In this document: positions 14,561 through 43,031 of the stretch, in pieces
Layout: the number at the start of each line of letters is the position of its first letter
How positions within the stretch are numbered: position 1 is the stretch's first letter
IMG/VR virus record: IMGVR_UViG_3300008516_000204
Location: 1-64,000 of that record
Length of the DNA: 64,000 nucleotides
Reading direction: 5' to 3' (one strand)
From: a virus
The notes under the pieces: generated by a model
What the model was told of the DNA's origin: nothing
Databases searched by the model: none
The model's input: the letters and a program-made list of their open reading frames with translations, nothing else
Made by a program: the position numbers and the translations under genes

Positions 14561-14641
14561 GACGAATAAGAGGATATCCTCTATATTAGCCCTGGGTTAG
14601 GTCATCTTTTTTGGCTACTTTGGACCCATCCCCTATTCGTC
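14561..14641 (-). ncRNA. Candidate structured RNA element between portal and ligase
   Basis: Closing stem GACGAATAGGGG/CTCTTATTCGTC (G-U pairs on the minus strand), inner TGGGTC/GACCTA and TAGCC/GGCTA pairings. Confidence 0.4.
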
Positions 14642-16015
14642 TCATTCCCTTTCCTTATCTTCTTTCAAAAATTTGATAATTCTTTTCGATCTCTTATCTC
14701 TTTTGGTCTCTTTTTTTCTCTGTTTCTTTTTTGGCTTTTCCTGTGGTTCTTCAATTTCTTCTTGCTCAATTGAACGCTTTTTCTTGGATGGTAATCCCCT
14801 GTCTCTGCGAACTTCCTCGATATCACGAATTCCAGCCTCCAAATCAATCTGGTCTATCTTTGCTGCATCCAAAGCATCTCGTAAATCCAATTCAGCAAAT
14901 TTAAAAGTATATTTATCTGTAAACTCCGAAATTAATGACTTATTTAATTTGGCTGCTATCATTTTTTGGAGTGGAATAATCTTCTCTGTTTTAAAAGCGT
15001 TTGCCTGTTCCTTACTATTGGCTCTATTGCTCGATTCAACAATTCCAACCATAATCGGAGGAACACCAAGAACAGCCAAAATCTCATCTCGGTTAAACTT
15101 CCGCTGATTCAAAAACTCCATATCCTTTGGAGGAGTTCCGATTGGAGTTATCTTTGCCCCGCCTTCTGTTATAATTGTCTTATGGGATTTGCCACTACCC
15201 TTGTAAACAGTTCGCCAATATTCCCTCATTCTCTTCAGCTGTGGTAAGGTACAATTACCTAAATCAACATGAAGTCTTGGTGTTGCATCATTTTTGAAAA
15301 AGTCTTTATTATAAGCTTGAGCATAAAGGTCAGTTTCAATAGGTATGATTAAACTTTCTAAGGGAGATAAACCATAGACCTCTGAACCAGGATTAATTAA
15401 CCTAAAGTGAATAATCTGATTAAGGTCGAATTCGGCAACTACCTGCCAGTCAAAAACTTGAACATAACCCAATATTTTCCCATGCTCATCAACTTTTATT
15501 CTCATTGAGGGACAATATACATTATAAAGGGCTACTGGTAAATCAGTAACCCTATCTCTCACAACCTCAATATAGGCATCGCCATAAATATGCAAATCTG
15601 TAATAATTTCAGCAACTATATCTGAAAATGTATCATCTGCATTGGGTTCTTCTAATAAGTCCTTTAAAGCTCCTATCTGTGAGTTTGAAGATAACTTCTT
15701 GCTCAATACAGCTTCTTTTGAATCAATCGCACCCTCTATAGAAACCAAACGCCACCCGTTTGAGGTGGCGGTTCTAACTATAACATCGACGGCTGCCCGA
15801 ACCCAAGATTCTTTCTTGTATATCTGCTCCAGCATTGAGTAACTAACACGGGTGTCCCTACCTTTGGTTGAATCGCTTTCGCTATAATCGTGAATATATG
15901 ATGCTGGGTCTACTTTGGGCTCTTGGACCACTTTTTTCTGTAGATCTTGTATCTCTGCAATAAGCTTATCTTTTTCTCGCTTATGCCTATTAAAGAAAGG
16001 AAAGGCCAAATTCAC
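14642..16015 (-). CDS. Portal protein, HK97 family
   Basis: WV.AAV..I, PN......I.DL.IYGDAY, IIHFR......YGLSPL, DMEFL..RKF.R.EI....GVPP. Confidence 0.93.
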   Translation of the reverse strand: MNLAFPFFNRHKREKDKLIAEIQDLQKKVVQEPKVDPASYIHDYSESDSTKGRDTRVSYSMLEQIYKKESWVRAAVDVIVRTATSNGWRLVSIEGAIDSKEAVLSKKLSSNSQIGALKDLLEEPNADDTFSDIVAEIITDLHIYGDAYIEVVRDRVTDLPVALYNVYCPSMRIKVDEHGKILGYVQVFDWQVVAEFDLNQIIHFRLINPGSEVYGLSPLESLIIPIETDLYAQAYNKDFFKNDATPRLHVDLGNCTLPQLKRMREYWRTVYKGSGKSHKTIITEGGAKITPIGTPPKDMEFLNQRKFNRDEILAVLGVPPIMVGIVESSNRANSKEQANAFKTEKIIPLQKMIAAKLNKSLISEFTDKYTFKFAELDLRDALDAAKIDQIDLEAGIRDIEEVRRDRGLPSKKKRSIEQEEIEEPQEKPKKKQRKKETKRDKRSKRIIKFLKEDKERE

Positions 16016-17030
16016 TCCTAAAATTGTAAAATTAAGACCAAAAAGATATTAGGGGACAAACTACCCCTCACTACTATTATACGTAAAAAGTCCAAAAATT
16101 ATAAGTAAAATTTTAAAATAATTTCTCTAAATAGCCCTCTACTTACAAAACCATAAGGCAAGTAAAATTTAACATATTGGCATTGAAAGAGTTATAACTA
16201 TTTTGTTTGCATCTAATAGCCCAAATACTACTAATTACTAATAACTACTAAAATAGTATTTCTCTCTGAATTTGTCGCAAAAAGTTATAATAATATGCGA
16301 CAGGCATCCAAATTTTGGAACTTTTCTGATTTTTTCGCAGAAAATTAAGGTATCACCCCAACCACTACAAAAATTTGGAACTATCAATTACTACTTATAA
16401 GTTGTATGTAAACCTACAGTAAACTGTATAAAACTATACATAAATCTGTATAGATACATACAATTCAAAGATATGTGAGAATAGAATTACCAAACAAATA
16501 GTGAGATAAAGGTGTTAATGTTAGGTAATAAGTTACTATACAATATAGCAAGCCTAATCTGACCACAAAATTTTACTACAGGATATAGCAAATCTGGACT
16601 AAATCAAACCTTTGAAAAACAGTATAGAATGAGCTAAGGCAAGAATTATTGTAACCCCAATAAAGATAAAGAGATAAGTACAATCACACCGAAAAGTGTA
16701 AGAATATACACATATAGGTACCCACCGACCAACAATATCATCATAATTTTCGGAAATCATTTATAAATCCCGTTCAATAAATAAGTTGTGTCATTTTATT
16801 ATACTCGTCTCCTCAATCACAGCCTCCGACGACACCCGACGAACAGCGACGGGACGGCTCTGCCTCTCTATATCTGTTATGTTGCTCTGTATTTATACCC
16901 GTTATTTTTATCCCATTTATCCCCCCTGTTTTATTATAATTATATGCTACGGGCAAGAGTATCCCGTTTTTCTCTGTATGTTATAATAGTCTGCTATCTG
17001 TAAGGGTATTCAAAGTTTTTTTATTTTACC
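16016..17030. other. Non-coding divergence hub (candidate origin / genome end / late promoter region)
   Basis: About 1 kb without a credible ORF between the divergent arms; many inverted repeats; purine/pyrimidine skew flips near 16785. Confidence 0.65.
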
Positions 17031-19297: not shown

Positions 19298-19623
19298 AAT
19301 GTCTTTAGTTATAAAAGCACTTTCTCCGACGACGGCCTTGTATGATATATAGGGAGTGAGATTGCTGGACAGACGCTTCTCGTACTCTTACACACTTGTT
19401 ACACTTTGGGCTTGGGTATCCTACTTAACTTTATTGACTGCTTACGGTTGCGGAAAAGTTTGACTGGATACTTTGGGGCCGTTTGGCACTTGCGGGGATT
19501 TGGGGCATCGGATATTGTTATCGGTTTTTTGATTAGGTTTGGATTGTTCATCCGCTTTTTTTGATTATTTTTTACTCTGGGCTTTGCTTTTTTCGGCTCA
19601 ATCGGCTATTTTAAAATTTGCTC

Positions 19624-19652
19624 TTGACTTTTCGGGCTTTTTATGGTATACT
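19624..19652 (+). promoter_or_regulatory. sigma70-type early promoter P2
   Basis: TTGACT-N17-TATACT with extended -10 TG. Confidence 0.8.
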
Positions 19653-19701
19653 TATAGAGATTGGATTTACTTATTGACTTTTTAAAAAAGGTAGATTTAA
19701 A

Positions 19702-21414: not shown

Positions 21415-21542
21415 CGAATTGGCTTATTTGGTGGTTGGCTATGCCGAAATAGAATAATCGCTTGTAAGTGAAATATGAGGGCTTTTCTACTTGACACTTA
21501 AACTTGAAATACGTGGTGGTTAAAAAATCTTAAAATAGGCAC

Positions 21543-21571
21543 TTGACAAATCGGATTTTATGTGGTATACT
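21543..21571 (+). promoter_or_regulatory. sigma70-type early promoter P3
   Basis: TTGACA-N17-TATACT with TGTG extended -10. Confidence 0.85.
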
Positions 21572-21625
21572 TATGGGGTAAGGTTATACTTATTGACTTT
21601 TTTAAAAAATAATGGGGGTGTTAAG

Positions 21626-24952: not shown

Positions 24953-25534
24953 ATGAAAATGAAAACGGACTTAAAAAAATGTAATGTTTGCAACAAATGG
25001 AAGTCCTTAATGGAATTTTATAAACGGGGTAATGAAGAAAATAAATTGCGTAATAAATGTAAAAAATGTTTTCAAAAGTATCATCAAAAGCGTTTACATT
25101 ATCTGAAATGTTATCTGAAAAAATATCGTCAAAAAAATAAGATAAAAATAAGACACAGAAGAAGGAAATACTATGAAGCTAATAAAGATAAACTCTTAAG
25201 AGAAAGAAAAATTCATTTTAGAAAAGTAAAATTAACTTGGCTTCCTTATTTAAAATCCAATCCAAGATGTGAAATTTGTGGCAAGCAACTCAATTATTTT
25301 TCAAGAAGCAATAATGGAGTATATTTTGACCATAAAAAACTGTCAGAAAAAATAAAAACAACCCCAGTTTCTTGGTTACAAACTCATCCTTATACATTAG
25401 AAAATATGAAAATTTGGAGAACTTGTAACTTTGGTATTTTATGTAATCATTGTAATCGCACTTTGCCAAGTAAAGATAGAGAGAAATGGCTAAGGAAAGT
25501 AACTCGATATGTCTATGAAATAGATAATTTTTAA
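24953..25534 (+). CDS. HNH/endonuclease VII-like protein
   Basis: K.C..C...K...EF...CK.C N-terminus; CEICG...FDH...LC..CN. Confidence 0.7.
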   Translation: MKMKTDLKKCNVCNKWKSLMEFYKRGNEENKLRNKCKKCFQKYHQKRLHYLKCYLKKYRQKNKIKIRHRRRKYYEANKDKLLRERKIHFRKVKLTWLPYLKSNPRCEICGKQLNYFSRSNNGVYFDHKKLSEKIKTTPVSWLQTHPYTLENMKIWRTCNFGILCNHCNRTLPSKDREKWLRKVTRYVYEIDNF

Positions 25535-25542
25535 AAAATTAC

Positions 25543-25571
25543 TTGACAAGAAACAGTTTTTGTGGTATACT
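25543..25571 (+). promoter_or_regulatory. sigma70-type early promoter P4 (heads the operon containing the GGDEF gene)
   Basis: TTGACA-N17-TATACT with TGTG extended -10. Confidence 0.85.
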
Positions 25572-25599
25572 TATGATGGAACTTGGAAAGGAGAATTAG

Positions 25600-27119: not shown

Positions 27120-27713
27120 ATGAGACTATGGTCAATTCATCCACACTATCTTGACAGACAAGGACTTTTAGCCGTTTGGAGAGAGGGATTATTAGCCCAA
27201 AAAGTATTGATACAGGGAGAATATAAACTTTGTTCTTGTATCAACGGAGTAGTAAGAAAATTTATAGATGTATCTCCTGTTGGTAAACATAGATGGGGAT
27301 ATGTCAAGTGTCGAAATTGTAAAGGCACAACTAAAATAAAAACTCCTTATTACAATCATCCACAACTTTTGCGTTTTAAACAATGTAAAAATTCTATTAG
27401 AACTATAAACTATTATTTAAGAAAGATTTGGGAAGAAAGTGTCAAAAGAAAATATAATTTCGATATAAATAAAATAAAAGATGTTTATGCAGTAGAAGAA
27501 TTAACAGTAACAACAGGACAATTAGAGTATGAATTTAAACATTTACAAAATAAATTATTTGAAAGAAATAAAAAACAATACATTAAAAACAAAAAATATA
27601 TTTCAAAATATAATTTAAAATGGGGTATTGTTTGTGATGTAAAGAAAATAGAACCTCATCCTTTATTCAAAGTAGTAAAAGGAGATATTGAATCTTGGGA
27701 AAAAATAAAATAG
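27120..27713 (+). CDS. Pyrimidine dimer DNA glycosylase / endonuclease V family, with Zn-finger insert
   Basis: MRLWSIHP.YLD..GL.A.WRE.LLAQKVL, Y.NHPQL.RF, GQL.YE..HL, HPLF.V..G.IE.WEK. Confidence 0.88.
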   Translation: MRLWSIHPHYLDRQGLLAVWREGLLAQKVLIQGEYKLCSCINGVVRKFIDVSPVGKHRWGYVKCRNCKGTTKIKTPYYNHPQLLRFKQCKNSIRTINYYLRKIWEESVKRKYNFDINKIKDVYAVEELTVTTGQLEYEFKHLQNKLFERNKKQYIKNKKYISKYNLKWGIVCDVKKIEPHPLFKVVKGDIESWEKIK

Positions 27714-28623: not shown

Positions 28624-28852
28624 AGGAGATGTAATGAAAAATAAATATTGTCCATATTGCAAGAGTAAGAATATACAGAAAGTAGTCATTAAATTTTCAA
28701 ATAGTCAGGAACAACGAGTAGGTCTTTGTATGAGTTGCAAAAAGATTTTCAGTATTAAAAAAGGAAAATAAAATGCTACTATTGGCGGTATTATTAATTC
28801 TTTTAATTTGCTAGCTGATTAACAAATTTATGGAAATATGAGGAAGGTGAAA

Positions 28853-29092
28853 ATGAGAAAGAAAGAGTATAGGAAGGTAGAACTAACTTGCGTAGATATA
28901 ATTTCTTATGAGAAAGGAATTTGGAAACCAGAAGAATTGGAATTGCCAGAAGTAAAGATAGTCGGTTATTTGTGGTTTAAAGACAAGGAAAAGGTTGCTC
29001 TTAAAAGGATAGAAGGACATCCTGAAGATGAGCCCATTCTAATACCATTGGGATGCGTAAAGAAGATGACCTATCTTAAGGAAGTAAAATGA
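28853..29092 (+). CDS. Hypothetical protein
   Basis: V.L..VD...VGYL......V.L.....IP.GCV; overlaps the GGDEF start (ATGA). Confidence 0.65.
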   Translation: MRKKEYRKVELTCVDIISYEKGIWKPEELELPEVKIVGYLWFKDKEKVALKRIEGHPEDEPILIPLGCVKKMTYLKEVK

Positions 29093-29607
29093 CTAAAAGA
29101 GAACTTCAGCGAAAATTAAAGAAATTAGAAACCAAACTAAAAAGATATAAAAAATTTAGTTGGTATGATGACTTAACCAATCTTTTTAATAGAAGAAAAT
29201 TAAAGAGAGATTTGAATAGGTTATGCTATGATTATAAGAGATATAGACATATATTTATGATGATTTTAATAGATATAGATGGATTTAAAGAAATAAACGA
29301 CACCAAAGGACATTTGGAAGGAGATAGAGTTTTAAAGAAATTTGCAAATATAATTAAAAAAGCTATTAGAGAAACTGACAGAGCCTACAGACCGAGTGGA
29401 GACGAATTTGTTATTGTATTACCTCATAGTAATATTAAAAGTGCCAATAATGTTATACGAAGAATTAAGACAAATGCACAGGTAAATATAAGTTATGGAA
29501 TAGATAGAGGAAAGAAACCAAAAGAATTGCTTATTAATATAGATAAAAAAATGTATGAAAATAAAAGGAAGAATACTACAAAGAATAGAATAATAACTGG
29601 GACTTGA
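29089..29607 (+). CDS. Diguanylate cyclase (coiled coil + GGDEF domain)
   Basis: DDLT..NRR, IDIDGFKEINDTKGHLEGD, I-site RETD five residues before the A-site SGDEF, ISYG, D..MY..K. Confidence 0.93.
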   Translation: MTKRELQRKLKKLETKLKRYKKFSWYDDLTNLFNRRKLKRDLNRLCYDYKRYRHIFMMILIDIDGFKEINDTKGHLEGDRVLKKFANIIKKAIRETDRAYRPSGDEFVIVLPHSNIKSANNVIRRIKTNAQVNISYGIDRGKKPKELLINIDKKMYENKRKNTTKNRIITGT

Positions 29608-29632
29608 CAAATTAGGTTTTATAGCATATACT
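29604..29632 (+). promoter_or_regulatory. sigma70-type promoter P5 overlapping the GGDEF stop codon
   Basis: TTGACA (29604-09)-N17-TATACT (29627-32). Confidence 0.85.
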
Positions 29633-29663
29633 TAAATATATAGGTTAAAGAGTAACTTAACGA

Positions 29664-29747
29664 TATCCTCGATAAAGGTAAACCAGCCGAAAGACTGGGG
29701 CACAAAACTCAAGGTCGTTTTAAGCGAAGCCGAGTTGCCGAAGGATA
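29664..29747 (+). ncRNA. c-di-GMP-I (GEMM) riboswitch aptamer 1
   Basis: P1 TATCCTCG/CGA-AGGATA; GATAAAGGTAAA-CCAG-CCGAAAGA-CTGG-GGCACAAA-ACTC...AGCC-GAGTTGCCGA matches the GEMM consensus including the GNRA loop. Confidence 0.9.
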
Positions 29748-29764
29748 GGTAATTCGGCTTTTTT
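29727..29764 (+). terminator. Intrinsic terminator overlapping aptamer 1 (ON switch)
   Basis: AAGCCGAGTTGCC-GAAGGATA-GGTAATTCGGCTT ending in a T6 run. Confidence 0.88.
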
Positions 29765-29813
29765 ATTTAGGAGGAATTTCTGAAGTAGTATAACTTCAAC
29801 ACACAATTTGATT

Positions 29814-29888
29814 TACGATAAAGGCAATTCGCTAGTATAGCGAAGCGCAAAGCTGTGGGTCAGAGATGATAGCCGAGCTACCACAGTA
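29814..29888 (+). ncRNA. c-di-GMP-I (GEMM) riboswitch aptamer 2
   Basis: CGATAAAGGCAA-TTCGCTA-GTA-TAGCGAA-GCGCAAA-GCT..GGGTC..GATAGCC-GAGCTACC. Confidence 0.85.
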
Positions 29889-29909
29889 TTCGGTAGCTCG
29901 GCTTTTTTT
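29871..29909 (+). terminator. Intrinsic terminator overlapping aptamer 2 (ON switch)
   Basis: Perfect 12-bp AGCCGAGCTACC/GGTAGCTCGGCT stem ending in a T7 run. Confidence 0.92.
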
Positions 29910-29928
29910 CTAAAAAAGGAGGTCTAAA

Positions 29929-30510
29929 GTGCCTATGAAATTAATTAACCGATTAATAATAGCAACTATTTTATGCTCGGTAAACTTAATAGCTTATGGG
30001 GAAGTGATGGAGGGCGAGGGTTTTGCTATCGGTGGGTTAAAGGGCAGATATTATGAAAATGGTGGATGTATCTATTTTATTGGGGATTTTACAGAGAAAG
30101 AAATTATTATGCACCAACAAAAATATGAAAAAAGAATGACTAAAAGAGCAAGGCAAGTCGATGGTGAAATACAGCGAAAACATGAAATAGAGATTGAGAA
30201 AATTAGGGCTCAGGCATTGAGAGATTACCTAATTGCTCAAGATATGCCATTACGAGAAATTGCGGATGCTATGAGAAATCTTAAAATTAGGCAGAATGTA
30301 AATATAGGAGATATTACTTCCTCAAGTTCTTCTTCTATTGGGGATATAACAAATACATCCTCCTCAATTTCCGAAGGCAGTAATGCTACAGGAACTGGTG
30401 GAACTTTAACCAATACAAATACCAATTCGGCCAGAAGTTGGGGTTGCCCTTGTATAAAATGTCTTGAAGCGCCACTGCTTGAGACCATACCAAAAGAATT
30501 AGAATATTAA
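29929..30510 (+). CDS. Riboswitch-controlled putative secreted protein (coiled coil + S/T/N-rich tail)
   Basis: SD AAGGAGGT, GTG start; signal-peptide-like N-terminus ending IAYG; IGDIT-Sn repeats. Confidence 0.75.
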   Translation: MPMKLINRLIIATILCSVNLIAYGEVMEGEGFAIGGLKGRYYENGGCIYFIGDFTEKEIIMHQQKYEKRMTKRARQVDGEIQRKHEIEIEKIRAQALRDYLIAQDMPLREIADAMRNLKIRQNVNIGDITSSSSSSIGDITNTSSSISEGSNATGTGGTLTNTNTNSARSWGCPCIKCLEAPLLETIPKELEY

Positions 30511-30539
30511 AAATTAGTTTACTAAATGAGGAGGAGCTA

Positions 30540-30884
30540 ATGTGTCCAAAACAATACAAAGAAATATTCCGAGGAAAGACTGCTCGAACTCTGGAACTAT
30601 TGAGAGAGGAACAAGAACCCAAAACTCCTCTGGAAATTCTCATTGAGGAGGAGAAAAATGAGTTTGATGTTACCCAGAAAAAGCAGGAACATTTAGTCAA
30701 GGAAGTCAGGAGGGCTTTGAAAAGTTTGACATTAAGACAAAGGCAATGTATCAGATTATACTTTACAAGGAACAAAAAGCAGAAAGAAATAGCTCAAATA
30801 TTAGGCATTAATCAGAATGTAGTAACAGTACATCTTGCGAGAGCGAAAAAAAAGTTAAAAAAAGTGCTTAAAGGGAAGCGATAA
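30540..30884 (+). CDS. sigma70 region-4 (HTH) domain regulator
   Basis: AL..LT.RQR..I.L.F......KEIA..LGI....V..HL.RA.KKL; no region 2 visible. Confidence 0.85.
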   Translation: MCPKQYKEIFRGKTARTLELLREEQEPKTPLEILIEEEKNEFDVTQKKQEHLVKEVRRALKSLTLRQRQCIRLYFTRNKKQKEIAQILGINQNVVTVHLARAKKKLKKVLKGKR

Positions 30885-30885
30885 A

Positions 30886-31152
30886 ATGCCGAAAAAACAC
30901 TATATTATGAGGGGTAAAAAGTTGAAAAGAGATAGAAAAATGACCTATCCTGTTACAGACAGAGAGGTTGAAGAATTTATCTACAATGCTTTTGAACGCC
31001 AGAACCCACCGAGTATATTCAAAATGGCCCTTGACCGATTGAAGGAAGAGGGCTTTCGTTTTGATACAGCCAGAAACCTGCGAAAAAATTGGGATAGGCT
31101 TATAGATAGGGCTTTGGAGATTAGAGAGGAACTTGATAGAGAGGAGATATAA
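30886..31152 (+). CDS. Hypothetical protein
   Basis: Coupled, ORF track. Confidence 0.65.
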   Translation: MPKKHYIMRGKKLKRDRKMTYPVTDREVEEFIYNAFERQNPPSIFKMALDRLKEEGFRFDTARNLRKNWDRLIDRALEIREELDREEI

Positions 31153-31153
31153 A

Positions 31154-31468
31154 GTGAGAAAGTTATTTATAATTTTATTTATATTAGGATTAGTATTTTT
31201 TAGTAAAACAAACTATTCTCCATATTCTTGGCAAATTGCAATAAATCCAAGAGAAATTCATACTATAAATAAGATTGATTTAACATATCGAATTAAAGGG
31301 TTTCAATTAGTGGTATGGAAAAGACTATCATTTGAACCCTACATAGGTTTTCCTATCTTTACTTTAACAGGAGAATTGGAAAGAGAATGGATTAAAGAAA
31401 AGGGTGAAGCAGAAATTTTTGCAGATAAAATGATAAAAATACATAAAGTTATAGAGGAGATGAAATGA
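31154..31468 (+). CDS. Membrane-anchored hypothetical protein
   Basis: GTG start after SD GAGGAG; N-terminal TM. Confidence 0.6.
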   Translation: MRKLFIILFILGLVFFSKTNYSPYSWQIAINPREIHTINKIDLTYRIKGFQLVVWKRLSFEPYIGFPIFTLTGELEREWIKEKGEAEIFADKMIKIHKVIEEMK

Positions 31469-31825
31469 AAAAGAAATTAGAAGTCATAACCAAAGTCAAT
31501 AAGAGTGAGTGCTATATCTGCAAAGGCAGTGATAAGGATTGCAGGGCCTGTAATGGAACTGGCATTTACAAGGATAAGACCTATTTCTTCATTGTGAACG
31601 GTTATGCCTATTCTGGGGATACTTTAAAATAAGGGGAATAGAATGATACAGACAATCTTAACTTATGTCCAGCCGATAACAATAATCGCTTTCATAGTGG
31701 CAGGAACCTGCTGTTTATTGCTTAGACCGATACAGTTAACTACTGGCATTATTAACTATTTGCTTGGTGCTATCAATTTCTTTATTTTTTACGGGCTAAA
31801 AATTTTAGGGAGGTAGAAAAATAAA

Positions 31826-32104
31826 ATGAGAAAATTAAAAAAATATTTGAAGTATAAAAGATTTATAAGAAAAATTAGAAATCAATTACCTATTCGTCAT
31901 CCAGAAACAGGACAATGGTTAAATTGGGATGTAGAACTTATTAGAATTGGTAGTAAATATAACCCAATGACAGGCGAGGAATATGGAGGCTATTTAACAT
32001 TAAGTATAACTCAACATAATGACTATATATCTGTAGATGATACTGTTTATAGATATAACTGGAAGAAAAAAAGAATAGAACAAACTGGAGCTAGATGGAG
32101 ATAA
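31826..32104 (+). CDS. Hypothetical protein
   Basis: SD GGGAGGT. Confidence 0.65.
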   Translation: MRKLKKYLKYKRFIRKIRNQLPIRHPETGQWLNWDVELIRIGSKYNPMTGEEYGGYLTLSITQHNDYISVDDTVYRYNWKKKRIEQTGARWR

Positions 32105-32105
32105 G

Positions 32106-32978
32106 ATGAAAACCGATTTCCAAGATTTACTCATCGCACTAAATCTGTTGCCATTGAACAAGAGGCAGATTAACGCCCTGCTTTTGCTTTACTCTTACTA
32201 TCTCGACTCAAATGGGGATAATTCCGAAAAAGTCAGTATAAAAGACCTGAGCCTCCAAATCGGACTGGACAGCACAGTTGGCTCATTCACTCTGGATAGT
32301 TTGATAGATTACAATATTTTGGGCTCTGTTGTGCTAAAAGAGTTTGTGGTAAAAAAGGAGATTGCACAGCATTTTCAGCGAGATTTCCTGCAAACTTTAA
32401 AAGGCAAAAAAAATCTGGTAAAACAGGCTATCAGCAGGGTGGGATTTTTTATCAAAGAGGGAACGAAGATTTATGTCTTCAACCCAGTTTTGGAGAGCTG
32501 GAAATATCCGAGCTGGTACAAGTTGAGAAAGGCACTTAAAATTTTAAAGACAAGATTTCCAGCAAACGAGTTTTTGAAAAATCTGTCAAGCACTCTTGAG
32601 AAAAATTCTAAGAATACGAGGAAGAAAGTTACCGACAAAGAGGGAAGGATAAACGCACCCTATCTGGTCAGGGTGTTTCTGTCCAAGTTCAACAATGCCT
32701 ATGGAAAGAAATACACGCCGAACTGGGCGATGGACAGCATCAAAATGAACAATCTCATCAGGCAGTTTGAGAAGAACAATATGACTGCAAAGGATGTTCC
32801 AGATTTTCTGGACTGGACTTTCGGGAAAGCGGAGGAAAGAAAACTATCTATGCACACAGGACTGTTGCGGACTTTTGCAAACGAGTATGTGATAAAGGAT
32901 ATTCATCGGATAAAGCGAAATCGGAAGTTTCGAGAAACGATAGATGGAGACAAATTTATTCGGACAAAGGAGGAATAA
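32106..32978 (+). CDS. Hypothetical protein, possible replication initiator/loader (wHTH-like N-terminus)
   Basis: Upstream of primase-helicase; SIKDLS..IGL HTH-like segment; helical C-terminal domain. Confidence 0.5.
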   Translation: MKTDFQDLLIALNLLPLNKRQINALLLLYSYYLDSNGDNSEKVSIKDLSLQIGLDSTVGSFTLDSLIDYNILGSVVLKEFVVKKEIAQHFQRDFLQTLKGKKNLVKQAISRVGFFIKEGTKIYVFNPVLESWKYPSWYKLRKALKILKTRFPANEFLKNLSSTLEKNSKNTRKKVTDKEGRINAPYLVRVFLSKFNNAYGKKYTPNWAMDSIKMNNLIRQFEKNNMTAKDVPDFLDWTFGKAEERKLSMHTGLLRTFANEYVIKDIHRIKRNRKFRETIDGDKFIRTKEE

Positions 32979-32979
32979 G

Positions 32980-33267
32980 ATGAAAAGATTATTGATTAGT
33001 TTATTGGTAGGAGTTATTTTATTTGTTAATATGCCTTCTTATGCTTTGACTAAAGAAGAAGCAGATGGATATGTAGGAATGAAAAATGTTATAGTTTTGA
33101 CTTATGGATTGCTCAATCCTATAGAAGGCTTGAGATGTAACATCATAGCTGGAAGAACAATTGTCGAGAAAAATGGGAATTATGATGTTTATCTTTTGGA
33201 AAAATTAAATGGAGATGTGATTAGTATAAGAATTGAATATATCATCGAAGTATTAACAACTCAATAA
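32980..33267 (+). CDS. Secreted hypothetical protein
   Basis: SD AGGAGG; MKRLLISLLVGVILFVNMPSYA signal peptide. Confidence 0.65.
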   Translation: MKRLLISLLVGVILFVNMPSYALTKEEADGYVGMKNVIVLTYGLLNPIEGLRCNIIAGRTIVEKNGNYDVYLLEKLNGDVISIRIEYIIEVLTTQ

Positions 33268-33749: not shown

Positions 33750-36044
33750 GTGAGAATAAAAAATTTAGAAGAACTAAAAAATAAACTCAGACCTTATTTA
33801 AAGGAATATCTCGAACTCAATGATACTGTATTCGAGGGGAATCACCTGACCTGTCCCTGTCGGTCTAATCACAGGAACGATGACAACACCCCATCTGCGA
33901 CATTCTTCCCCGACGATGAGCATATCAAGTGCTTTGTGTGTGACGATGTATCCAATGCCGACATATTTGCTTGTGCTTATTTTCTTGAGGGAAAGCCTCT
34001 TACTGGTTCTGAATTTATCAGTGATAATGTTTTATACTTGGCGAAAAAGTTTGATATCTCCTATAAGGTGGAGGACATAAGCGACAGGGAAAAGCAAGCG
34101 AGTCAGTTGCGAGAAATTTTGGAAGTGGCTAACAAGATGATGAAAGCGGTAATAAAGCAGGAACATTCCTCGTTGAAAAAAGTCAAGGATTATATTAAGA
34201 AAAGACATTGGGATAAAATCATAGACAAGTTTGAGTTTGGTTACTGCCTTTATGAGAAGTTAATTGCTAATCTTTTGAAGCGGGGATATACCAAAGAACA
34301 GCTTGAAATGGCTGGCTTAACAGATAAAGATAATGGGAGAAACCAGAATAGTGCCAAAGGCGTTTTGAATAATCGGCTCGTATTTCCCATTAGGGACGGA
34401 TATGGCAGGATAACTGGGTTTGCTAGCAGACGATTAAGCGACAAAAATGGGGAGCAGAAATACATCAACTTTAGGGCGACTAATTTGTATAAAAAAGCCG
34501 AGATACTATATAACTTGAAAGAGGCGAAAAATCATCCCAAAGTCTATCTTGTTGAGGGGTATGCCGATGTGTGGTCTTTGGCTTTAAAAGGAGTGGATAA
34601 TGTCATTGCTCTGGGAGGTTTGGGATTTAGTGATAAGCAATATGACCTTTTGGTGTATAATAGGATTAAGCAGTTGACACTCTGTCTTGATAATGATGAG
34701 GCTGGAAAAGAAGCGACTACCCGAATTGTTGAAGAAAAATTAAAGGCAAAAAGGGATATAGAAGTTTTTATCAAAGAGCCAAATGGAAATAAAGATCCAG
34801 ATGAATACTTACAAAGACATAGTGCTGAAGATTTTCTTGGCTTACCAGAGTTCACCATTTTTGAGTGGAAACTTAAGGACTTGAAAGAGAATAAAGAGAA
34901 TGAGTTTCTCAAAAATGACTTGATCCAGTTGGTAGTTAATGAGGAAGATTATGTAACCACCGAACAGATGATAAGGGATCTGGCCGAGGTTTTAAATGTT
35001 ACTTTTGAGACACTCAAAAAAGAAGTTGAGCGAAACAGGAAATTGGGTAGTGGCAAATATTTGCTAACTTCACGTGATATATTGAAAGAGAAAGCATCTC
35101 TTGAAACCGAAGTAAACCAGTTCGAGTCTTGGGCTTGGTCGAGGGGTGGTGGACTTTTGGGTCTGAAAACTGGCTATCCGATACTCACGAAAAAATTAGA
35201 TGGGTTGCAAAATGCTTTCTATCTGCTCGCTGGACAGACAAACATAGGAAAATCAGCAGTCTTATTAAATCTGGCCTTAAATCTTACGAAACATAACGAT
35301 GTCTTTGTATTGTTCTTTTCCATTGATGATAATATCAGGCAAATACTTCCGAGAATAATTGCTGCCGATACTAATTTGGAAATAAATACTGTGGCAAATC
35401 CGAAGTTCAAGATTAAATATAACAAGGAACTCAAACCAGAAAGAGCCGAAGAGTTGCTCAAAGCCCGTGAAAAAGCGATGACCAACCTAAAATCCTTGTC
35501 AAATTCTTTTGCCGTAAAAGAGGAAAACGATATTCGCAGCATAGAGGAGATGGAAAAATACATCCGAATATACAAGGAGATTGCGGGCAAGAAGCAGTTG
35601 GTTGTAATCGTTGACAATCTGCACAGGATAAAAAGCGAACTGAGGTTCGGCTCGGTGAGGGAGACATATATGTATGTGTCGGACACGCTGAAAAGATGGA
35701 AGACCGATTATGATATTCCAGTTGTGGCCACAGCCGAACTCAAGAAGATAAACTCGTTGCGGAGACCGTTGGGCGACGATATTAAGGAATGTGTTGATTT
35801 GCAGTTCGATTCAGATTTTACAGCACTACTCTACAATGATTTTGATTTGCGGGATGACAGTACCCTGTATTTTGTGGATAATAATGGGAAATCCCAACCT
35901 GTCATTGAAATAAGCGTTATCAAGAACAAGACGGGCGGGTTCAAGGGAAAGTTATACTACAAATTTTATAAAAATTTTTCCAAGATAGTTGAGGCTTCAA
36001 GAGAGGAAATGGAGCAATACTTTTCAGATTTTATAGGAAGATAA
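33750..36044 (+). CDS. DnaG-type primase fused to a DnaB-like helicase
   Basis: Zn finger CPC..H..D.TPS...CF.C; FPI....GF..R, KYIN; TOPRIM VEGY.D, DND.AG, KDPDE; Walker A AGQTNIGKS, Walker B IVD, KNK.G. Confidence 0.93.
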   Translation: MRIKNLEELKNKLRPYLKEYLELNDTVFEGNHLTCPCRSNHRNDDNTPSATFFPDDEHIKCFVCDDVSNADIFACAYFLEGKPLTGSEFISDNVLYLAKKFDISYKVEDISDREKQASQLREILEVANKMMKAVIKQEHSSLKKVKDYIKKRHWDKIIDKFEFGYCLYEKLIANLLKRGYTKEQLEMAGLTDKDNGRNQNSAKGVLNNRLVFPIRDGYGRITGFASRRLSDKNGEQKYINFRATNLYKKAEILYNLKEAKNHPKVYLVEGYADVWSLALKGVDNVIALGGLGFSDKQYDLLVYNRIKQLTLCLDNDEAGKEATTRIVEEKLKAKRDIEVFIKEPNGNKDPDEYLQRHSAEDFLGLPEFTIFEWKLKDLKENKENEFLKNDLIQLVVNEEDYVTTEQMIRDLAEVLNVTFETLKKEVERNRKLGSGKYLLTSRDILKEKASLETEVNQFESWAWSRGGGLLGLKTGYPILTKKLDGLQNAFYLLAGQTNIGKSAVLLNLALNLTKHNDVFVLFFSIDDNIRQILPRIIAADTNLEINTVANPKFKIKYNKELKPERAEELLKAREKAMTNLKSLSNSFAVKEENDIRSIEEMEKYIRIYKEIAGKKQLVVIVDNLHRIKSELRFGSVRETYMYVSDTLKRWKTDYDIPVVATAELKKINSLRRPLGDDIKECVDLQFDSDFTALLYNDFDLRDDSTLYFVDNNGKSQPVIEISVIKNKTGGFKGKLYYKFYKNFSKIVEASREEMEQYFSDFIGR

Positions 36045-36451: not shown

Positions 36452-36677
36452 AATTAAGAAGACAAAGCAACTTATAAAGAAACTAGAGCCTTATTGGAAA
36501 GAACTGCAAGAAATTGAAAGAGAGTACTATAGTGCAGTTTATAGATTAGAAAAGAGAATGTCAAAAGAAATTGGGATATTGGGTTTAGAGTTTTTCCAAT
36601 GTGATAATTTCTTTGTAGGAATTGGTAATTTAGAGAGGACATTGCCACTTATTCACGCTAGGGAGTTAGAAAAATGA
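36441..36677 (+). CDS. Hypothetical protein
   Basis: SD, overlapping neighbours. Confidence 0.6.
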   Translation: MKNKIKKTKQLIKKLEPYWKELQEIEREYYSAVYRLEKRMSKEIGILGLEFFQCDNFFVGIGNLERTLPLIHARELEK

Positions 36678-37213
36678 TAGTTACCGATACTAAACAATTA
36701 CTAATATCTTGTAAAAATGTTCAGCCAGAACAGGCAAAAGAAATTATCCAAAAGCTGGAGAAGGAACTTGTCTTACACAAAAATGGCATAGGACTTTCAG
36801 CAAACCAAATCGGCATCGATGCTAAAGTCGCTATCATTCGTATTCCTGACAAGGAAAAGATTGACCTGATAAATCCCAAAATAGTCGAGCATAGCAAGGA
36901 AATCGTGTTCTACAAAGAGGGTTGTTTGAGCTTGCCTGACCAGAAAAAGGAGATAACGATCCAGAGATACGAGCAGATAACCATCGAGAATGGATTTGAC
37001 AGGACTAAATATGTATTGTATGGGATGGAAGCGATTGCTTGTCAACACGAGATAGACCACCTAAATGGGTTATTGATTACTGATAAGCAAGCCAAACCAT
37101 ATGCAAGACCAGAAAGAAAGATAGGCAGGAACGAGAGATGCAAAGTTTGTGATATGAAATATAAAAAGCACACAAATTCCAATCACGGATTTATTCCAAA
37201 AGAGGGGGAATGA
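36674..37213 (+). CDS. def: Peptide deformylase with SEC-C-like C-terminus
   Basis: GIGLSANQ, EGCLS, QHEIDH; tail KIGRNERC..C..KYKKH. Confidence 0.93.
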   Translation: MIVTDTKQLLISCKNVQPEQAKEIIQKLEKELVLHKNGIGLSANQIGIDAKVAIIRIPDKEKIDLINPKIVEHSKEIVFYKEGCLSLPDQKKEITIQRYEQITIENGFDRTKYVLYGMEAIACQHEIDHLNGLLITDKQAKPYARPERKIGRNERCKVCDMKYKKHTNSNHGFIPKEGE

Positions 37214-38107: not shown

Positions 38108-39325
38108 ATGATTAAAATGAAAAAGAAAACTAATTTAGTGCAGTTTAACAAGGATTACAACAGGGGGTTGACTACCACTCAACTGTCCATTAAATATGGC
38201 ATCAGCGAAAGGACTGTTGAGAGAATAGCAGCCAAACAAAGAGCAAAAGGACAGTTAAACTATAAGAAATATATTACCAAATCAGGGGTTATCAAGGAAG
38301 ATGCTTCTGTAACACAGAAAGAATTGTTGAAACTTTTGGCTCTTTATGAGACCAAATCTGTAGTTGCCAAGAAACTGGGCATAAGTGAAGGCAAAGTGAG
38401 GGGATTATGCAAGCAATATAATATAATCGATTCAACAACTCGTTCTAAACTTCTGGTAGAATCCTTGCACGAACTTACGAAAGATGTTAAACCATATCAG
38501 GCAGCCAAAACCCATTCACATATTACTGGCGAAACGCTGGTAATCCAATTAACCGACTGGCATGCTGGAAAAATAGTAAAAGACCAACAGGGTAATGTGG
38601 TCTATAACGAAGCCGTATTTAAGCGGAGAATGGATAAATTCTGTGCCCAGATATTGAAGCTATTGGACAACCACATTAAGAAAGGGACTAAAATCAATGA
38701 TGTGGTTCTCATCTCGACTGGAGATAATGCCAATGGCGAAGACATATATGCAACACAGGCATATGAACAAGAGCTTGCACCTCCTTATCAGGTAATGTTG
38801 GTTGTGGAAGTGTTTACCAAATTGATTCAGGCTTTGCTAGATAGGAAACTAAATGTTAAGTTTTATGGGGTAAAGGGAAATCATGGTCGCCTTGGCAAGG
38901 ATAAAGACCCGAATTCCAACTGGGATATTATGATATACCTTATCCTCAAATATCAAGCGTATGCTAATAATAAAAAGGTTGAGATAAATTTTTCTACTTT
39001 AGATTACCTCAATTTTGAAATACAGGGATGGAAATACCACATTCGGCATATAGCACCAGAGCAACCAGACACATCTGCAAGCAGGGCGAAGTTTGGTGGG
39101 TGGGCTGGTATGCACAACGCCGATGCGATAGTCTATGGACACTTTCATCACTTCGGCATTTTCGATGCCAATGGAACGAGAGTGTTCAGGGGCGGTTCGC
39201 CCATCGGTGCGGATGAGTTTGCCGAATCTTTGGCTAAAGAGGCTGACCCAGTTCAGTTGGTCTGGGGCGTTTCAAAGGAGAGGATTCTGACCTTTAGCTA
39301 TGCGGTTGATTTAGCGGATATTTAA
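38108..39325 (+). CDS. HTH + calcineurin-like metallophosphoesterase
   Basis: DWH, GD, GNH, H, GHFH motifs; two N-terminal HTHs. Confidence 0.85.
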   Translation: MIKMKKKTNLVQFNKDYNRGLTTTQLSIKYGISERTVERIAAKQRAKGQLNYKKYITKSGVIKEDASVTQKELLKLLALYETKSVVAKKLGISEGKVRGLCKQYNIIDSTTRSKLLVESLHELTKDVKPYQAAKTHSHITGETLVIQLTDWHAGKIVKDQQGNVVYNEAVFKRRMDKFCAQILKLLDNHIKKGTKINDVVLISTGDNANGEDIYATQAYEQELAPPYQVMLVVEVFTKLIQALLDRKLNVKFYGVKGNHGRLGKDKDPNSNWDIMIYLILKYQAYANNKKVEINFSTLDYLNFEIQGWKYHIRHIAPEQPDTSASRAKFGGWAGMHNADAIVYGHFHHFGIFDANGTRVFRGGSPIGADEFAESLAKEADPVQLVWGVSKERILTFSYAVDLADI

Positions 39326-39947: not shown

Positions 39948-42900
39948 ATGAAAACTATAGCATTAGCAATGATAGTCAAAAACGAATCGAGAGTGATAAA
40001 GCGTTGCCTCGATTCTGTCAAAAACATTATTGACTATTATGTGATAATAGAGGACACCGCTTCTACCGATGGCACAGCAGATATTATTCGTGAAACCCTG
40101 AAAGATATCCCAGGCGAGATAATACAGAAGGACTGGGTAGGATTTGCGGATACTCGAAACCATTATATTGAGGCATCGAAAGGGAAGGCGGATTATATTT
40201 TGGTAATGGATGCCGACCAAATTTTGGAAGTTGATAACGATTTTGACAAGGATAAATTGGACAAGGACATTTATAACTGTATCGTGAAATATCCCACATT
40301 GCAACACCATTTCCCCAAGATATTTAGACCAGATTGCGGATGCAAATATAAGGGCATTATACATAACTTTTTATCTACGAGTAATGTAACTGTGGGACAG
40401 CTAAATAATATCAGATTTTTAGATCTACACGACGGGAAGCGGGCAATGAATTATTCGGAAAAGATAAAGAAAGATATTGAGATTTTGAAAAGTGCTATTA
40501 AGGCAGACCCAGCAAATAAAGTGAGATATACATTTTACTTGGCACAATCTTTGCGTGAAGATGGAAGATATGAACAGGCTATTAGATACTATAAGAAACG
40601 AGTAAGTTATAAGGGTTGGCGAGAGGAAGTTTATCGAAGTTTATACCAAATAGGTAATTGTTATTTAGCACTTAAAGATTATAATAGAGCTATCTACAGT
40701 TACTTAAAAGCATATAATTACAGACCAACGAGGGCAGAATCTATTTTCAAATTAGCACTTTTATATCGCAATCTCGGACAGAGGCAATTGGCGTACGAAT
40801 TTTCTAAAATAGGAATCGGGATTAAGTATCCCAAATCCGATACATTATTTGTTGAGCATAATATCTACGATTATCTAATGTTGTTTGAGTATTCAATTGC
40901 CCTTTATTATGTAGGAAGATATGCGGAGTCGATTAGGGTTTGTAATAGGATAGATTCTATGGTGGGAGTTCCCAAATCTATTAAAGAACAGAATAGAAAA
41001 AATCGGGAGTTCTCGCTGAATAAGATTTCAGAGTGGTCTATGGACAAGGAAATGTATAATTGGATAAGAAGAAATGTACCCAGAGGGGGTACTATACTTG
41101 AACTTGGAAGTGGGAAAAGCACGATAGATTTAGAAAAGGATTATAGAGTATATTCAGTAGAGCATAGTAAAGAGTGGTTAAATCTCTCACCCAAAAGTAG
41201 ATATATTTATGCTCCGATAAGAAAGGGTTGGTATGATATTGATGTATTGAAAAGGGAGATGCCAATTCACTATAATTTGATAATTGTGGATGGTCCGCCA
41301 GGATATATAGGAAGAAAGGGTTTCTATGAGAATCTAAAATTGTTTAATACCAAAGTTCCCATTCTATTTGACGATACCAATCGCAAAGCAGAAAAAGGTT
41401 TATTGGAAAAGGTAGCAAAGAAATTAAGAACCAAATATACAGAATATAATGTCAGTAATAAAAAGTTTGCTGTGCTTAATTATATAGAGAAAAAGCCTAA
41501 GAAATATGATGTTATTTTCTATGATAATGTTACAACACCATTTACTTCAAGGACTTGGAAAAGTAAGGCTGTCGGGGCTTCAATATTGGAAGCATCATTA
41601 TTGCTAACTGAACTCGCTAAAGAGAAGAAAGTTTTGGCTTTTTCTCGGACAGATAAGTCAAAGGTACAAGATAGAATTTTGTGGAAGAATTATAATAATT
41701 GCTACAATTATGAGTGCGATACTCTGATAGTTTTCAGATACAGTAGTTTGCCTCCAATTAAGTATAAAAGACTTATCGTATGGGCACACGATGCACCACC
41801 ACTCGCCCATAGGCATTTATTTGAAGCATTAAATAGGGATAACGCAACTTTGGTTACAATATCGGATTGGCAGAAATCTCTTTTCGAAAAATATGTAAAG
41901 AATATTGAGACGATAAGATTATGGCTTCCAGATTGGATTTACAGTTATAAGACAGAAAAAGACCCAAATAAATATATCTATGCGAGTGCCAATGTGAAAG
42001 GATTAGATAGCACGATTAAACTGTGGTCGGAACTAAAAAGAGATAGCCGAATGATAGGGGCAACCTTGTATGTTTGTACGCCTGGATATGACAAAGTGGA
42101 TGAACAAAAATTGAGGGAAGCAGGTGTAGTATTTTTAGGAAGCCTTCCAACATTAGAAGATGTAATCAGGGAAATTGCAAGTTCGGTAGGAATGTTTTAT
42201 GTCAATGATTTTCCAGAGACATTTGGGGTATCTCCTTATTTGGCAGAAGTATTAGGTTGCCGAACTCATATTTTATGTGTAAAAGGATTTGGTGCTTTGA
42301 GAGAAGTGTTGAATAGCGATTTACTGACAGATGATAGGGATAAGTTTATGGCAGATGTTTTGGAGGCACATCAAAATGGTGGGCATATATTTGAGCCAGA
42401 TGTACTTACAAAAGAGGAACAATATAGAAAATGGAAGGCAATGATAGATAAAAAGGAAATCACCGAAATCCTACAGGAAAGCGATATTCCAAAAGGGATG
42501 TATTTGAGGAATTTTGAGGGTGGTAAAGAGGGATTACAGGAACTGATTAGCAACTTACCGAAGAATTGTGTTATGGCTGAAATTGGAAGTTATATTGGAG
42601 AGTCTACTGAATTATTTGCTAAAAATTGTTTTAGAGTTTATGCTATCGATGCTTGGGAAAATTATTACGATAAAAATGATAAATCATCTTATCAGTATCC
42701 TATGAAGTTAGTAGAGCAGGCTTTTGATGTTAAAACAAAAAAATTCTTTCTTAAGATAGTAAAAATAAAAAAATATAGTAAAGAAGCAAGTGAGACTTTT
42801 GGAAACAAGATTTTTGATTTTGTCTACATAGATAGCAATCATCAGTATGAGAATATCCTTGAGGATATTAAGATTTGGTTGCCGAAGATAAAGCCGAATG

Positions 42901-43031
42901 GGATGATAGGCGGGCACGATTATGGCTATTTACCCAATGTTACAAAAGCGGTTGATAAAGTATTCGGGGAGCAGAAAGTAGAAACTTTTGAGGACACAAG
43001 TTGGTTGGTTAGATTGGAAAATGTAAAATGA
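39948..43031 (+). CDS. Multidomain GT2-TPR / SAM methyltransferase / GT-B-like / methyltransferase protein
   Basis: MIVKNE..I.RCL.S, STDGT, MDAD; TPR helices; LELGSG.ST, VDGP; PETFG...AE; EIGS..G.S, YID..H.YE, GHDY. Confidence 0.85.
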   Translation: MKTIALAMIVKNESRVIKRCLDSVKNIIDYYVIIEDTASTDGTADIIRETLKDIPGEIIQKDWVGFADTRNHYIEASKGKADYILVMDADQILEVDNDFDKDKLDKDIYNCIVKYPTLQHHFPKIFRPDCGCKYKGIIHNFLSTSNVTVGQLNNIRFLDLHDGKRAMNYSEKIKKDIEILKSAIKADPANKVRYTFYLAQSLREDGRYEQAIRYYKKRVSYKGWREEVYRSLYQIGNCYLALKDYNRAIYSYLKAYNYRPTRAESIFKLALLYRNLGQRQLAYEFSKIGIGIKYPKSDTLFVEHNIYDYLMLFEYSIALYYVGRYAESIRVCNRIDSMVGVPKSIKEQNRKNREFSLNKISEWSMDKEMYNWIRRNVPRGGTILELGSGKSTIDLEKDYRVYSVEHSKEWLNLSPKSRYIYAPIRKGWYDIDVLKREMPIHYNLIIVDGPPGYIGRKGFYENLKLFNTKVPILFDDTNRKAEKGLLEKVAKKLRTKYTEYNVSNKKFAVLNYIEKKPKKYDVIFYDNVTTPFTSRTWKSKAVGASILEASLLLTELAKEKKVLAFSRTDKSKVQDRILWKNYNNCYNYECDTLIVFRYSSLPPIKYKRLIVWAHDAPPLAHRHLFEALNRDNATLVTISDWQKSLFEKYVKNIETIRLWLPDWIYSYKTEKDPNKYIYASANVKGLDSTIKLWSELKRDSRMIGATLYVCTPGYDKVDEQKLREAGVVFLGSLPTLEDVIREIASSVGMFYVNDFPETFGVSPYLAEVLGCRTHILCVKGFGALREVLNSDLLTDDRDKFMADVLEAHQNGGHIFEPDVLTKEEQYRKWKAMIDKKEITEILQESDIPKGMYLRNFEGGKEGLQELISNLPKNCVMAEIGSYIGESTELFAKNCFRVYAIDAWENYYDKNDKSSYQYPMKLVEQAFDVKTKKFFLKIVKIKKYSKEASETFGNKIFDFVYIDSNHQYENILEDIKIWLPKIKPNGMIGGHDYGYLPNVTKAVDKVFGEQKVETFEDTSWLVRLENVK

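Follow-up and report, generated by a model that had tools for sequence, protein, structure and literature searches.

Can a virus make a bacterial second messenger and then read it with its own RNA? The question is raised by a locus near 29-31 kb of the virus record IMGVR_UViG_3300008516_000204, of which we analyzed the first 64 kb (bases 1-64000, hereafter the window). Here a gene for a candidate diguanylate cyclase with a GGDEF domain, a promoter, two riboswitches of the cyclic di-GMP (c-di-GMP)-I class and a gene for a sigma-70 region-4 protein follow one another on the plus strand. A reading made from the sequence alone, without database searches (the sequence-only reading), had proposed that the phage makes and senses its own messenger as a gate. 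The anatomy behind that proposal is real: each of the parts just listed is present as claimed, the arrangement is conserved in a related phage (contig L003), and the riboswitch terminators are the sole intergenic terminators found on their strand, while the functional steps of the gate are inferred. Building on the parts observed, the geometry with which they overlap, their conservation and their rarity, we regard the interpretation as partly supported and lean modestly towards a gate at which c-di-GMP would prevent the termination of rightward transcription, with an enzyme of the phage determining how much of this ligand is present. The features of the locus are as follows (aa, amino acids).

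28838-29092, plus strand: 84-aa early gene bordering the module on the left, with its stop and the start of the cyclase gene overlapping in ATGA; homologues in the related contigs L003 and L004
29089-29607, plus strand: candidate stand-alone GGDEF diguanylate cyclase, 172 aa, no sensor domain (PF00990, TIGR00254, PDB relatives, 14-member family)
29582-29636, plus strand: fourth and last early promoter copy, hexamers at 29604-29632 (promoter scan, repeat family, kept in L003)
29667-29742, plus strand: c-di-GMP-I aptamer 1, with a GAAA tetraloop (RF01051, 50.9 bits, E 5e-7)
29729-29766, plus strand: intrinsic terminator 1, stem 29729-29758, its 5' arm being the 3' strand of aptamer 1 (-18 kcal/mol, six T)
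29813-29885, plus strand: c-di-GMP-I aptamer 2, with a pentaloop instead of a GNRA tetraloop (RF01051, 49.3 bits, E 1e-6)
29872-29910, plus strand: intrinsic terminator 2, stem 29872-29902, its 5' arm being the 3' strand of aptamer 2 (-21 kcal/mol, 11-bp perfect stem, seven T)
29929-30510, plus strand: first gene behind the riboswitches, 193 aa, with a hydrophobic, signal-like N-terminus, a Ser/Thr-rich region and a Cys-rich C-terminus (no family)
30540-30884, plus strand: sigma-70 region 3/4-only protein, 114 aa, candidate regulator (PF08281, PF04545)

We considered the two aptamers first. The covariance-model check that the sequence-only reading had suggested was run with RF01051, and both aptamers match the full model (1-87) at 14-16 bits above the gathering score of 35 bits. 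They are the sole Rfam matches in the 64 kb and were recovered again in a run over the whole genome. The five-nucleotide loop of aptamer 2 is AGUAU (GAAAU in L003), and the L003 counterpart of this aptamer scores 57.1 bits. When the two aptamers of the window are aligned with the two of L003, admittedly a small sample, 4 of the 15 consensus pairs have changes on both sides.

Each aptamer is overlapped at its 3' strand by an intrinsic terminator, a layout that appears both in the folds and in the terminator scans and is kept in L003. Terminator 2, which has a loop of 9 nucleotides (nt), was missed by a consensus scan and picked up by our own scan of the whole genome. The minimum-free-energy structure of each aptamer with its platform contains the terminator, with the aptamer 3' strand as its 5' arm, and the full-length folds have z-scores of -3.7 and -4.7 against shuffled sequences. 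There is no separate antiterminator in either riboswitch. Because terminator and aptamer share a strand, an aptamer stabilized by its ligand would exclude the terminator, which is the geometry of an ON switch. The same geometry is known from the Bacillus thuringiensis riboswitches Bc2 and Bc3-5 (PMC4933901, PMC4759541). In the folds, CCUC before aptamer 1 (29667-29670) also pairs with GGAGG after terminator 1 (29770-29774), enclosing the whole first riboswitch; GGAGG has no start codon behind it, and L003 has CUCC...GGAG at the matching places (L003:4879-4985). This pairing could be a long-range helix or could be due to chance.

Rfam alignments of both aptamers place an unpaired G before the first helix, an A right after that helix and a C after the second helix (AAAGG..., ...CAAA... 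and ...GCC/ACC in the sequence), and we take these, by the Vc2 numbering, to be the ligand-contact positions. A G at the specificity position selects c-di-GMP, while an A selects cyclic AMP-GMP (cGAMP) (PMC9481103). The A, rather than G, at the second ligand position sets the aptamers apart from the GGC variant, and the match to the GGC family is below that family's own cut-off.

On the writer side, the GGDEF domain of the 172-aa protein, whose motif reads SGDEF, is full length (PF00990, E 7.9e-35, 120.4 bits against a cut-off of 23.8); the match to TIGR00254 reaches 115.8 bits against a cut-off of 37.4, and the PDB relatives of the protein are active cyclases. We could identify an N-terminal helix, DIDGFK, IND, EGD, the inhibitory site (I-site) RETD, SGDEF and a C-terminal Lys (K159). 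The I-site has the RxxD form and lies five residues ahead of the motif (RETD-RAYRP-SGDEF). The protein belongs to a family that, with 13 homologues from other assemblies (45-75% identity, 160-191 aa), has 14 members. The Ser of SGDEF and all of the metal-binding, catalytic and substrate-binding residues are invariant in this family, the N-terminal helix is conserved, and the RxTD site is nearly invariant (R invariant, T and D at least 90% conserved). Such invariance argues for a functional enzyme family under selection and not for a decayed domain, and, judging from sequence, the 172-aa protein is most likely an enzyme that makes c-di-GMP. A fragment about 80% identical to it is found on a 1.4-kb contig from another study, which is too short to give any context, and an IMG/VR search with the cyclase alone found no relative. 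The predicted homodimer of the cyclase scores 0.25 against a mark of 0.42, which we count neither way.

As to the product, Asp at the GD position is canonical for diguanylate cyclases, while Ser at this position marks the Hypr cGAMP synthases (PMC6456294). Since the guanine-specifying Asp is present in the phage protein, it would not be a Hypr enzyme. The G of the aptamers and the Asp of the cyclase thus point to the same molecule, c-di-GMP, for writer and reader; a cGAMP reading of the locus was considered and rejected on the basis of these two positions.

To see what a pair of ON switches at this place might control, we considered the promoters and terminators around it. The fourth early promoter, listed above, is the last of four homologous 55-nt copies that make up the largest direct-repeat family in 16-64 kb. 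The other three are:

19602-19656, plus strand: early promoter copy 1, CTTGACT-N17-TATACT with a TG extension (direct-repeat family and promoter scan)
21521-21575, plus strand: early promoter copy 2, TTGACA-17-TATACT (promoter scan and direct-repeat family)
25521-25575, plus strand: early promoter copy 3, TTGACA-17-TATACT, the nearest upstream of the cyclase gene (promoter scan and direct-repeat family)

Copy 4 (TTGACA-17-TATACT) matches the consensus at 11 of 12 positions, and its -35 hexamer shares bases with the stop codon of the cyclase gene (TGA, 29605-29607), as had been noticed from the sequence alone. No promoter of the early family was found to the right of it. In a scan of the whole genome, the two riboswitch terminators were the only intergenic intrinsic terminators found on the plus strand. 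With the last early promoter and the sole intergenic terminators found on the strand placed in this way, read-through from upstream and transcripts begun at 29604 would both meet the double barrier. Past the barrier there is no recognizable stop or restart of transcription for about 55 kb: we found no promoter-like repeat family or terminator in 30-85 kb, and no middle or late promoter motif shared among the downstream intergenic gaps, most of which are small open reading frames (ORFs). The block of genes behind the riboswitches, put at about 33 kb by the sequence-only reading, in fact extends further, to about 85.4 kb in a genome of 106 kb. That the barrier controls all of the downstream replication genes would be suggested solely by the absence of recognizable promoters and terminators among them.

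The first gene behind the barrier has AAGGAGG 6 nt upstream of its GTG start. Its 193-aa product had been described as a secreted protein; the ORF is there as described, while the word "secreted" derives from the N-terminal hydrophobic segment alone, and searches of Pfam, PHROG and NCBIfam gave no family, nor was there any atlas lead. A spacer of 29 nt with no terminator separates this gene from the sigma-region-4 gene. The 114-aa product of the latter has PDB profile matches to region 4 of FliA, SigK and WhiG, and its TIGR02937 match covers only positions 70-165 of the 165 in the model. As region 2 is absent, the protein falls short of a complete sigma factor; from its sequence it may be a DNA-binding regulator of the region-4 type, and to assign it the following position in a regulatory cascade would be speculative. 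We considered the possibility of a split sigma factor, with the 84-aa protein supplying the missing region 2, and rejected it, as searches of Pfam, of NCBIfam and of PDB sequence profiles matched the 84-aa protein to no sigma family. Further downstream, the primase-helicase, PolA and RecA genes named in the sequence-only reading are all found, the last as a UvsX/RecA-like gene:

30886-64000, plus strand: downstream rightward block, continuing to about 85.4 kb (no intergenic terminator and no early-family promoter found)
33750-36044, plus strand: primase-helicase
36674-37213, plus strand: peptide deformylase, an auxiliary gene among the replication genes
38108-39325, plus strand: exonuclease
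56126-58666, plus strand: PolA
61733-62329, plus strand: RuvC-like gene
62820-63839, plus strand: UvsX/RecA-like gene

The mechanism that we propose for this arrangement infers enzyme activity, ligand binding, ON behavior in vivo and the reach over genes. Host RNA polymerase would start at the four related sigma-70-type early promoters (19.6-29.6 kb), and the small GGDEF protein would be among the products of the early transcripts. Every rightward transcript, whether it came from upstream read-through or from the start at 29604, would then meet two complete c-di-GMP-I riboswitches in series. In the absence of ligand each RNA would fold into its terminator and transcription would end; with c-di-GMP bound, the aptamer would keep the 5' arm of the terminator to itself and RNA polymerase would continue, so that the genes for the small exported-looking protein and the sigma-region-4 regulator would be transcribed, along with those of replication and recombination. 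With two ON switches acting independently one after the other, the read-through probabilities would be multiplied, giving a steeper response to the ligand. The phage cyclase would guarantee that ligand is present and would delay read-through until the enzyme has accumulated, and its RxxD site would cap the ligand level and thereby limit overshoot.

There is a familiar precedent for the general plan. In phage lambda, early transcripts are halted at terminators until an early product of the phage permits delayed-early read-through, a role played by N and Q. Both are proteins whose target is RNA polymerase, modified at the nut and qut sites, whereas in the scheme proposed here a small molecule would act on the nascent RNA; the resemblance is one of mechanism only, with no homology.

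Relatives of the phage were found by way of the primase-helicase, and the synteny comparison in IMG/VR that the sequence-only reading had recommended was made with them. Four are close (81-96% identity), two of these being on contigs that do not reach the region, and more distant ones are at 24-45% identity; neither a GGDEF gene nor an RF01051 match was found in the distant relatives. The first of two informative relatives is L003, an 81.7-kb contig (77% complete) with a primase-helicase 95% identical to that of the window. The promoter, the two aptamers and their terminators are all retained there, 87% identical in nucleotide sequence; the first aptamer stem shows compensatory changes, and the stem of terminator 2 is preserved through G-U changes. 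In the slot before the riboswitches, however, the 172-aa cyclase of the window is replaced by a 513-aa REC-GGDEF-HD-GYP protein, the motifs of which are intact (phospho-acceptor region, RIGGDEF, RQDD I-site, HDIGK and HHERWDGTGYP; HD-GYP domain PF13487, E 8.5e-35). The GGDEF domains of the two proteins are only 31% identical, compared with 70-95% for the neighboring genes, which indicates that two non-orthologous c-di-GMP enzymes occupy one slot upstream of the same riboswitches. From its domains, the receiver-controlled, bifunctional enzyme of L003 suggests selection for control of the ligand beyond its mere production, and it fits a phage that sets the ligand level better than it fits a simple timer.

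The second informative relative, the 22-kb contig L004, has a primase-helicase 83% identical to that of the window and lacks the module. There the 84-aa gene is followed by the sigma-region-4 gene within two bases, and the homologue of the 193-aa gene is 1 kb upstream, without a leader RNA. The 84-aa protein is 73% identical in L003 and 51% in L004; the corresponding values for the 193-aa protein are 53% and, at the different position, 45%. As enzyme and riboswitches are present together or absent together, we regard them as a module of 1.45 kb (29089-30539). A near-consensus promoter, TTGACA-17-TATTAT, lies directly after the sigma-region-4 gene of L004 (L004:5495-5523), so that the last early promoter is on the opposite side of that gene from its place in the window.

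How unusual is this arrangement? We addressed the question from both sides with censuses of IMG/VR, which are samples limited by exact-pattern seeding and are not exhaustive. On the writer side, among 79 further IMG/VR contigs that encode a GGDEF protein, a single one has an RF01051 match. This is the provirus G025 (L042/L104), in which the riboswitch lies in the 5' leader of a gene for a 716-aa GGDEF protein whose C-terminus appears to be of EAL type, a host-type feedback layout. Like bacterial riboswitch-controlled GGDEF/EAL loci, it shares with the window a c-di-GMP-I aptamer and a GGDEF gene in one locus, but the order is reversed, the feedback is on the enzyme's own expression, and the DNA is probably of host type. 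On the reader side, IMG/VR was scanned with the core motif, and the matches (80 loci listed, of 93 stretches) included three records with true c-di-GMP-I aptamers, none of which encodes a GGDEF protein. These are L217 (G118, 53 kb, complete), L229 (G130) and L235 (G136, with two aptamers 1.9 kb apart), and their aptamers score 66-74 bits. A blastn search of GenBank phages (INPHARED) with 29000-33000 gave no match.

Phages with a writer and no reader do exist. Clostridium phage Clo-PEP-1 encodes a 146-aa GGDEF protein (gp61), and no c-di-GMP-I riboswitch was found in its genome; nor was one found in L024 or L026, which hold the nearest IMG/VR homologues of the window cyclase (with the motif EGDEF in L024 and SGDEF in L026, a complete 89-kb phage). 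In all three, as in the window, a short N-terminal helix is joined to a compact GGDEF domain without a sensor, and the gene is among early or replication genes.

For the reader, the closest systems are bacterial. Bc2 of B. thuringiensis (upstream of cap) and the triple-tandem Bc3-5 are of the same class as the window pair, with a terminator for each aptamer, and are serial and ON. They are chromosomal, however, and serve adhesin and surface genes with c-di-GMP from host enzymes encoded elsewhere, while the pair described here is in a phage, at the boundary of early and replication genes and directly behind a cyclase gene. Tandem c-di-GMP-I doublets are not rare in bacteria, 347 having been catalogued by Sherlock et al. 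2022 (PMC9481103), and a more digital response is attributed to tandem ON riboswitches of this class (PMC4759541, PMC9481103). Phages, on the other hand, rarely carry riboswitches (PMC5473149). The C. difficile prophages phiCD630-1 and phiCD630-2 have the c-di-GMP-I riboswitches cdi1_4 and cdi1_5 (Sudarsan 2008, as cited in PMC5473149; PMC7699646); these are single, OFF-type switches of temperate phages placed ahead of an antitoxin RNA, with no cyclase and no gating of replication. A phage product that raises c-di-GMP in the infected cell, as the window cyclase is proposed to do, is Yip, a peptide that switches on the Pseudomonas host cyclase YfiN (PMC11461919); it acts by way of a host enzyme, and a phage-encoded sensor of the messenger is not described for it. 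The sequence-only reading knew of no phage with a self-contained writer-plus-reader layout, and our literature searches likewise turned up no phage described as having both a cyclase and a riboswitch, while the small censuses gave no second lineage. The parts are of known kinds; the circuit that they would form is rare and mechanistically plausible, and we could not find it described.

A number of observations weigh against the gate as we have drawn it. Host c-di-GMP could by itself open such a gate. The layout is seen in two genomes only, those of the window phage and L003, and in the latter the enzyme has an HD-GYP phosphodiesterase domain too, so that it could lower c-di-GMP as well as raise it. 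No GGDEF gene and no riboswitch were found in the 22 kb of L004, which makes the module an accessory layer, dispensable in this group of phages, and no core requirement. The active-site motif of the window cyclase is non-canonical, with Ser for the first Gly of GG[D/E]EF, and an A-to-S change at this position of the motif abolished the activity of another cyclase (PMC3974145). The claim that no further consensus promoter lies downstream holds at the quality of the early family, but there are 11/12 matches to the sigma-70 consensus, without the conserved flanks of that family, at 41247, 57372 and 69671, two of which are inside long ORFs (41247 in 39948-43031 and 57372 in PolA), and weaker matches elsewhere. 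Finally, our scans are blind to promoters that depend on phage factors, to weak internal sigma-70 promoters and to Rho-dependent events.

We considered three alternatives. The riboswitches might read the c-di-GMP of the host, as an indication of its sessile or motile state, to decide on proceeding with the infection, while the phage enzyme serves mainly in host takeover through the reprogramming of host physiology, for instance of motility, surface receptors, the matrix or the exclusion of superinfecting phages; its adjacency to the riboswitches would then be incidental or a matter of fine-tuning. The stand-alone GGDEF genes of the riboswitch-free phages (Clo-PEP-1 gp61, L024 and L026) speak for this explanation, the receiver and phosphodiesterase domains of the L003 enzyme suggest an integration of host signals, and Yip acting on YfiN demonstrates that phages do manipulate host c-di-GMP (PMC11461919). 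We nevertheless consider it unlikely, given that two non-orthologous c-di-GMP enzymes occupy the exact slot upstream of the same conserved riboswitches and that L004, which is without the riboswitches, is without the enzyme also, the two co-varying as one module.

The module might instead be a local, moron-like mobile cassette that regulates the exported-looking protein and perhaps the sigma-region-4 gene, with the replication genes on unrecognized promoters. Its absence from L004, where a homologue of the 193-aa gene does without a riboswitch, fits such a cassette, as do the sigma-70-like matches outside the early family (up to 11/12) downstream, and bacterial c-di-GMP-I ON switches typically govern surface or exported proteins (PMC4933901, PMC9481103). 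Yet no terminator follows the 193-aa gene in the 29 nt before the sigma-region-4 gene, neither a promoter-like repeat family nor a terminator was found in the next 55 kb, and read-through from the four early promoters would end here too; a purely local role thus seems to us distinctly improbable.

The last alternative, that the GGDEF protein is no c-di-GMP synthase but inactive, an RxxD receptor or a maker of another nucleotide, so that the riboswitches answer to host ligand only, draws on the Ser of SGDEF, on the EGDEF of L024 and on the frequent use of degenerate GGDEF domains as receptors (PMC3974145), and we give it very little weight in view of the invariance of the remaining catalytic and substrate residues and of the Ser itself in the 14 homologues, of the guanine-specifying Asp that speaks against a Hypr cGAMP synthase (PMC6456294), and of the natural activity of the SGDEF enzyme ECA3270 (PMC3974145). 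With a natural SGDEF enzyme active, activity of the window protein is possible, and we describe it as a cyclase candidate.

The wider genome gives the locus its setting. The source record is 106,111 bp, is classed as having direct terminal repeats and is rated 100% complete. Its terminal repeat is an exact 99 bp (window 1-99 and genome 106013-106111); being exact, it may merely reflect circular assembly, that is, it may be an assembly overlap of a circular or circularly permuted genome and no true terminal repeat. GC content is 31-39%. The genes of the left arm (286-16760), which include portal and head proteins, point leftward, as do those of the right arm (85.6-106 kb), and all genes between 16.8 and 85.4 kb point rightward. 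No tyrosine integrase was found in the genome and no tRNA genes in the window, and a search of the genome for other c-di-GMP components (EAL, HD-GYP, PilZ, a second GGDEF, a c-di-GMP-II riboswitch) found none. The promoter and Shine-Dalgarno style, the terminator-type riboswitches and the closest genome matches to the L003 enzyme, which are from Clostridia at merely 39% identity, hint weakly at a host among the Bacillota. DNA of the phage is present in marine sediment metagenomes, which may be the source sample itself, and there was no RNA run among those listed for it.

Several other genes and sequence features of this phage and its relatives deserve mention. A denV-like pyrimidine-dimer DNA glycosylase, an auxiliary function, is encoded among the early genes (27120-27713). 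The rightward block is rich in DNA-modification genes (39948-43031, 53736-56123 and 61119-61745), comprising a 1027-aa glycosyltransferase-methyltransferase fusion and three more DNA methyltransferases, which probably have anti-restriction functions. In L003, an extra 237-aa ORF with DUF559/Vsr-like and NUMOD3 matches (L003:7027-7740), homing-endonuclease-like, lies between the homologues of window genes 31465-31632 and 31643-31816; the window has no such ORF. The primase-helicase of L004 (L004:10001-13570) has 1189 aa and matches the window protein at residues 1-502 and again from about 519; the in-frame insertion of about 1.3 kb comes right after the Walker A motif (GQTNIGK) and resembles an intein, here within the helicase domain of DnaB type. 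L004 also has an intergenic run of 11 C just upstream of its homologue of the 193-aa gene (L004:3489-3500), which could be a slippage-prone tract or an assembly artifact.

In the prevailing view, c-di-GMP is a signal of the host, and phages do no more than perturb it. A cyclase gene with tandem sensors, placed at the sole intergenic terminators found on the plus strand, suggests that the development of a virus may be timed or conditioned in a new way. We put forward tentatively, with less than even confidence, the full form of the idea, an autonomous second-messenger checkpoint in which the phage's own early c-di-GMP would license two RNA switches in series and, through them, transcription of the regulator and of the replication genes. 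If this is true, a self-made small molecule acting on RNA would stand in for an antiterminator protein, so that phage development would have an equivalent of protein antitermination that works through a small molecule and RNA, and this would be the first virus shown to write and read a bacterial cyclic dinucleotide for the timing of its own genes. The checkpoint of the sister phage would then be open to a kinase signal, which by way of the receiver-controlled GGDEF/HD-GYP enzyme would raise or lower the same licence. For synthetic biology, the system would offer a compact and portable module of a writer and a digital reader. Cyclic-dinucleotide signaling internal to a virus would also bear on how phages sense the biofilm or motile states of their hosts in sediments.

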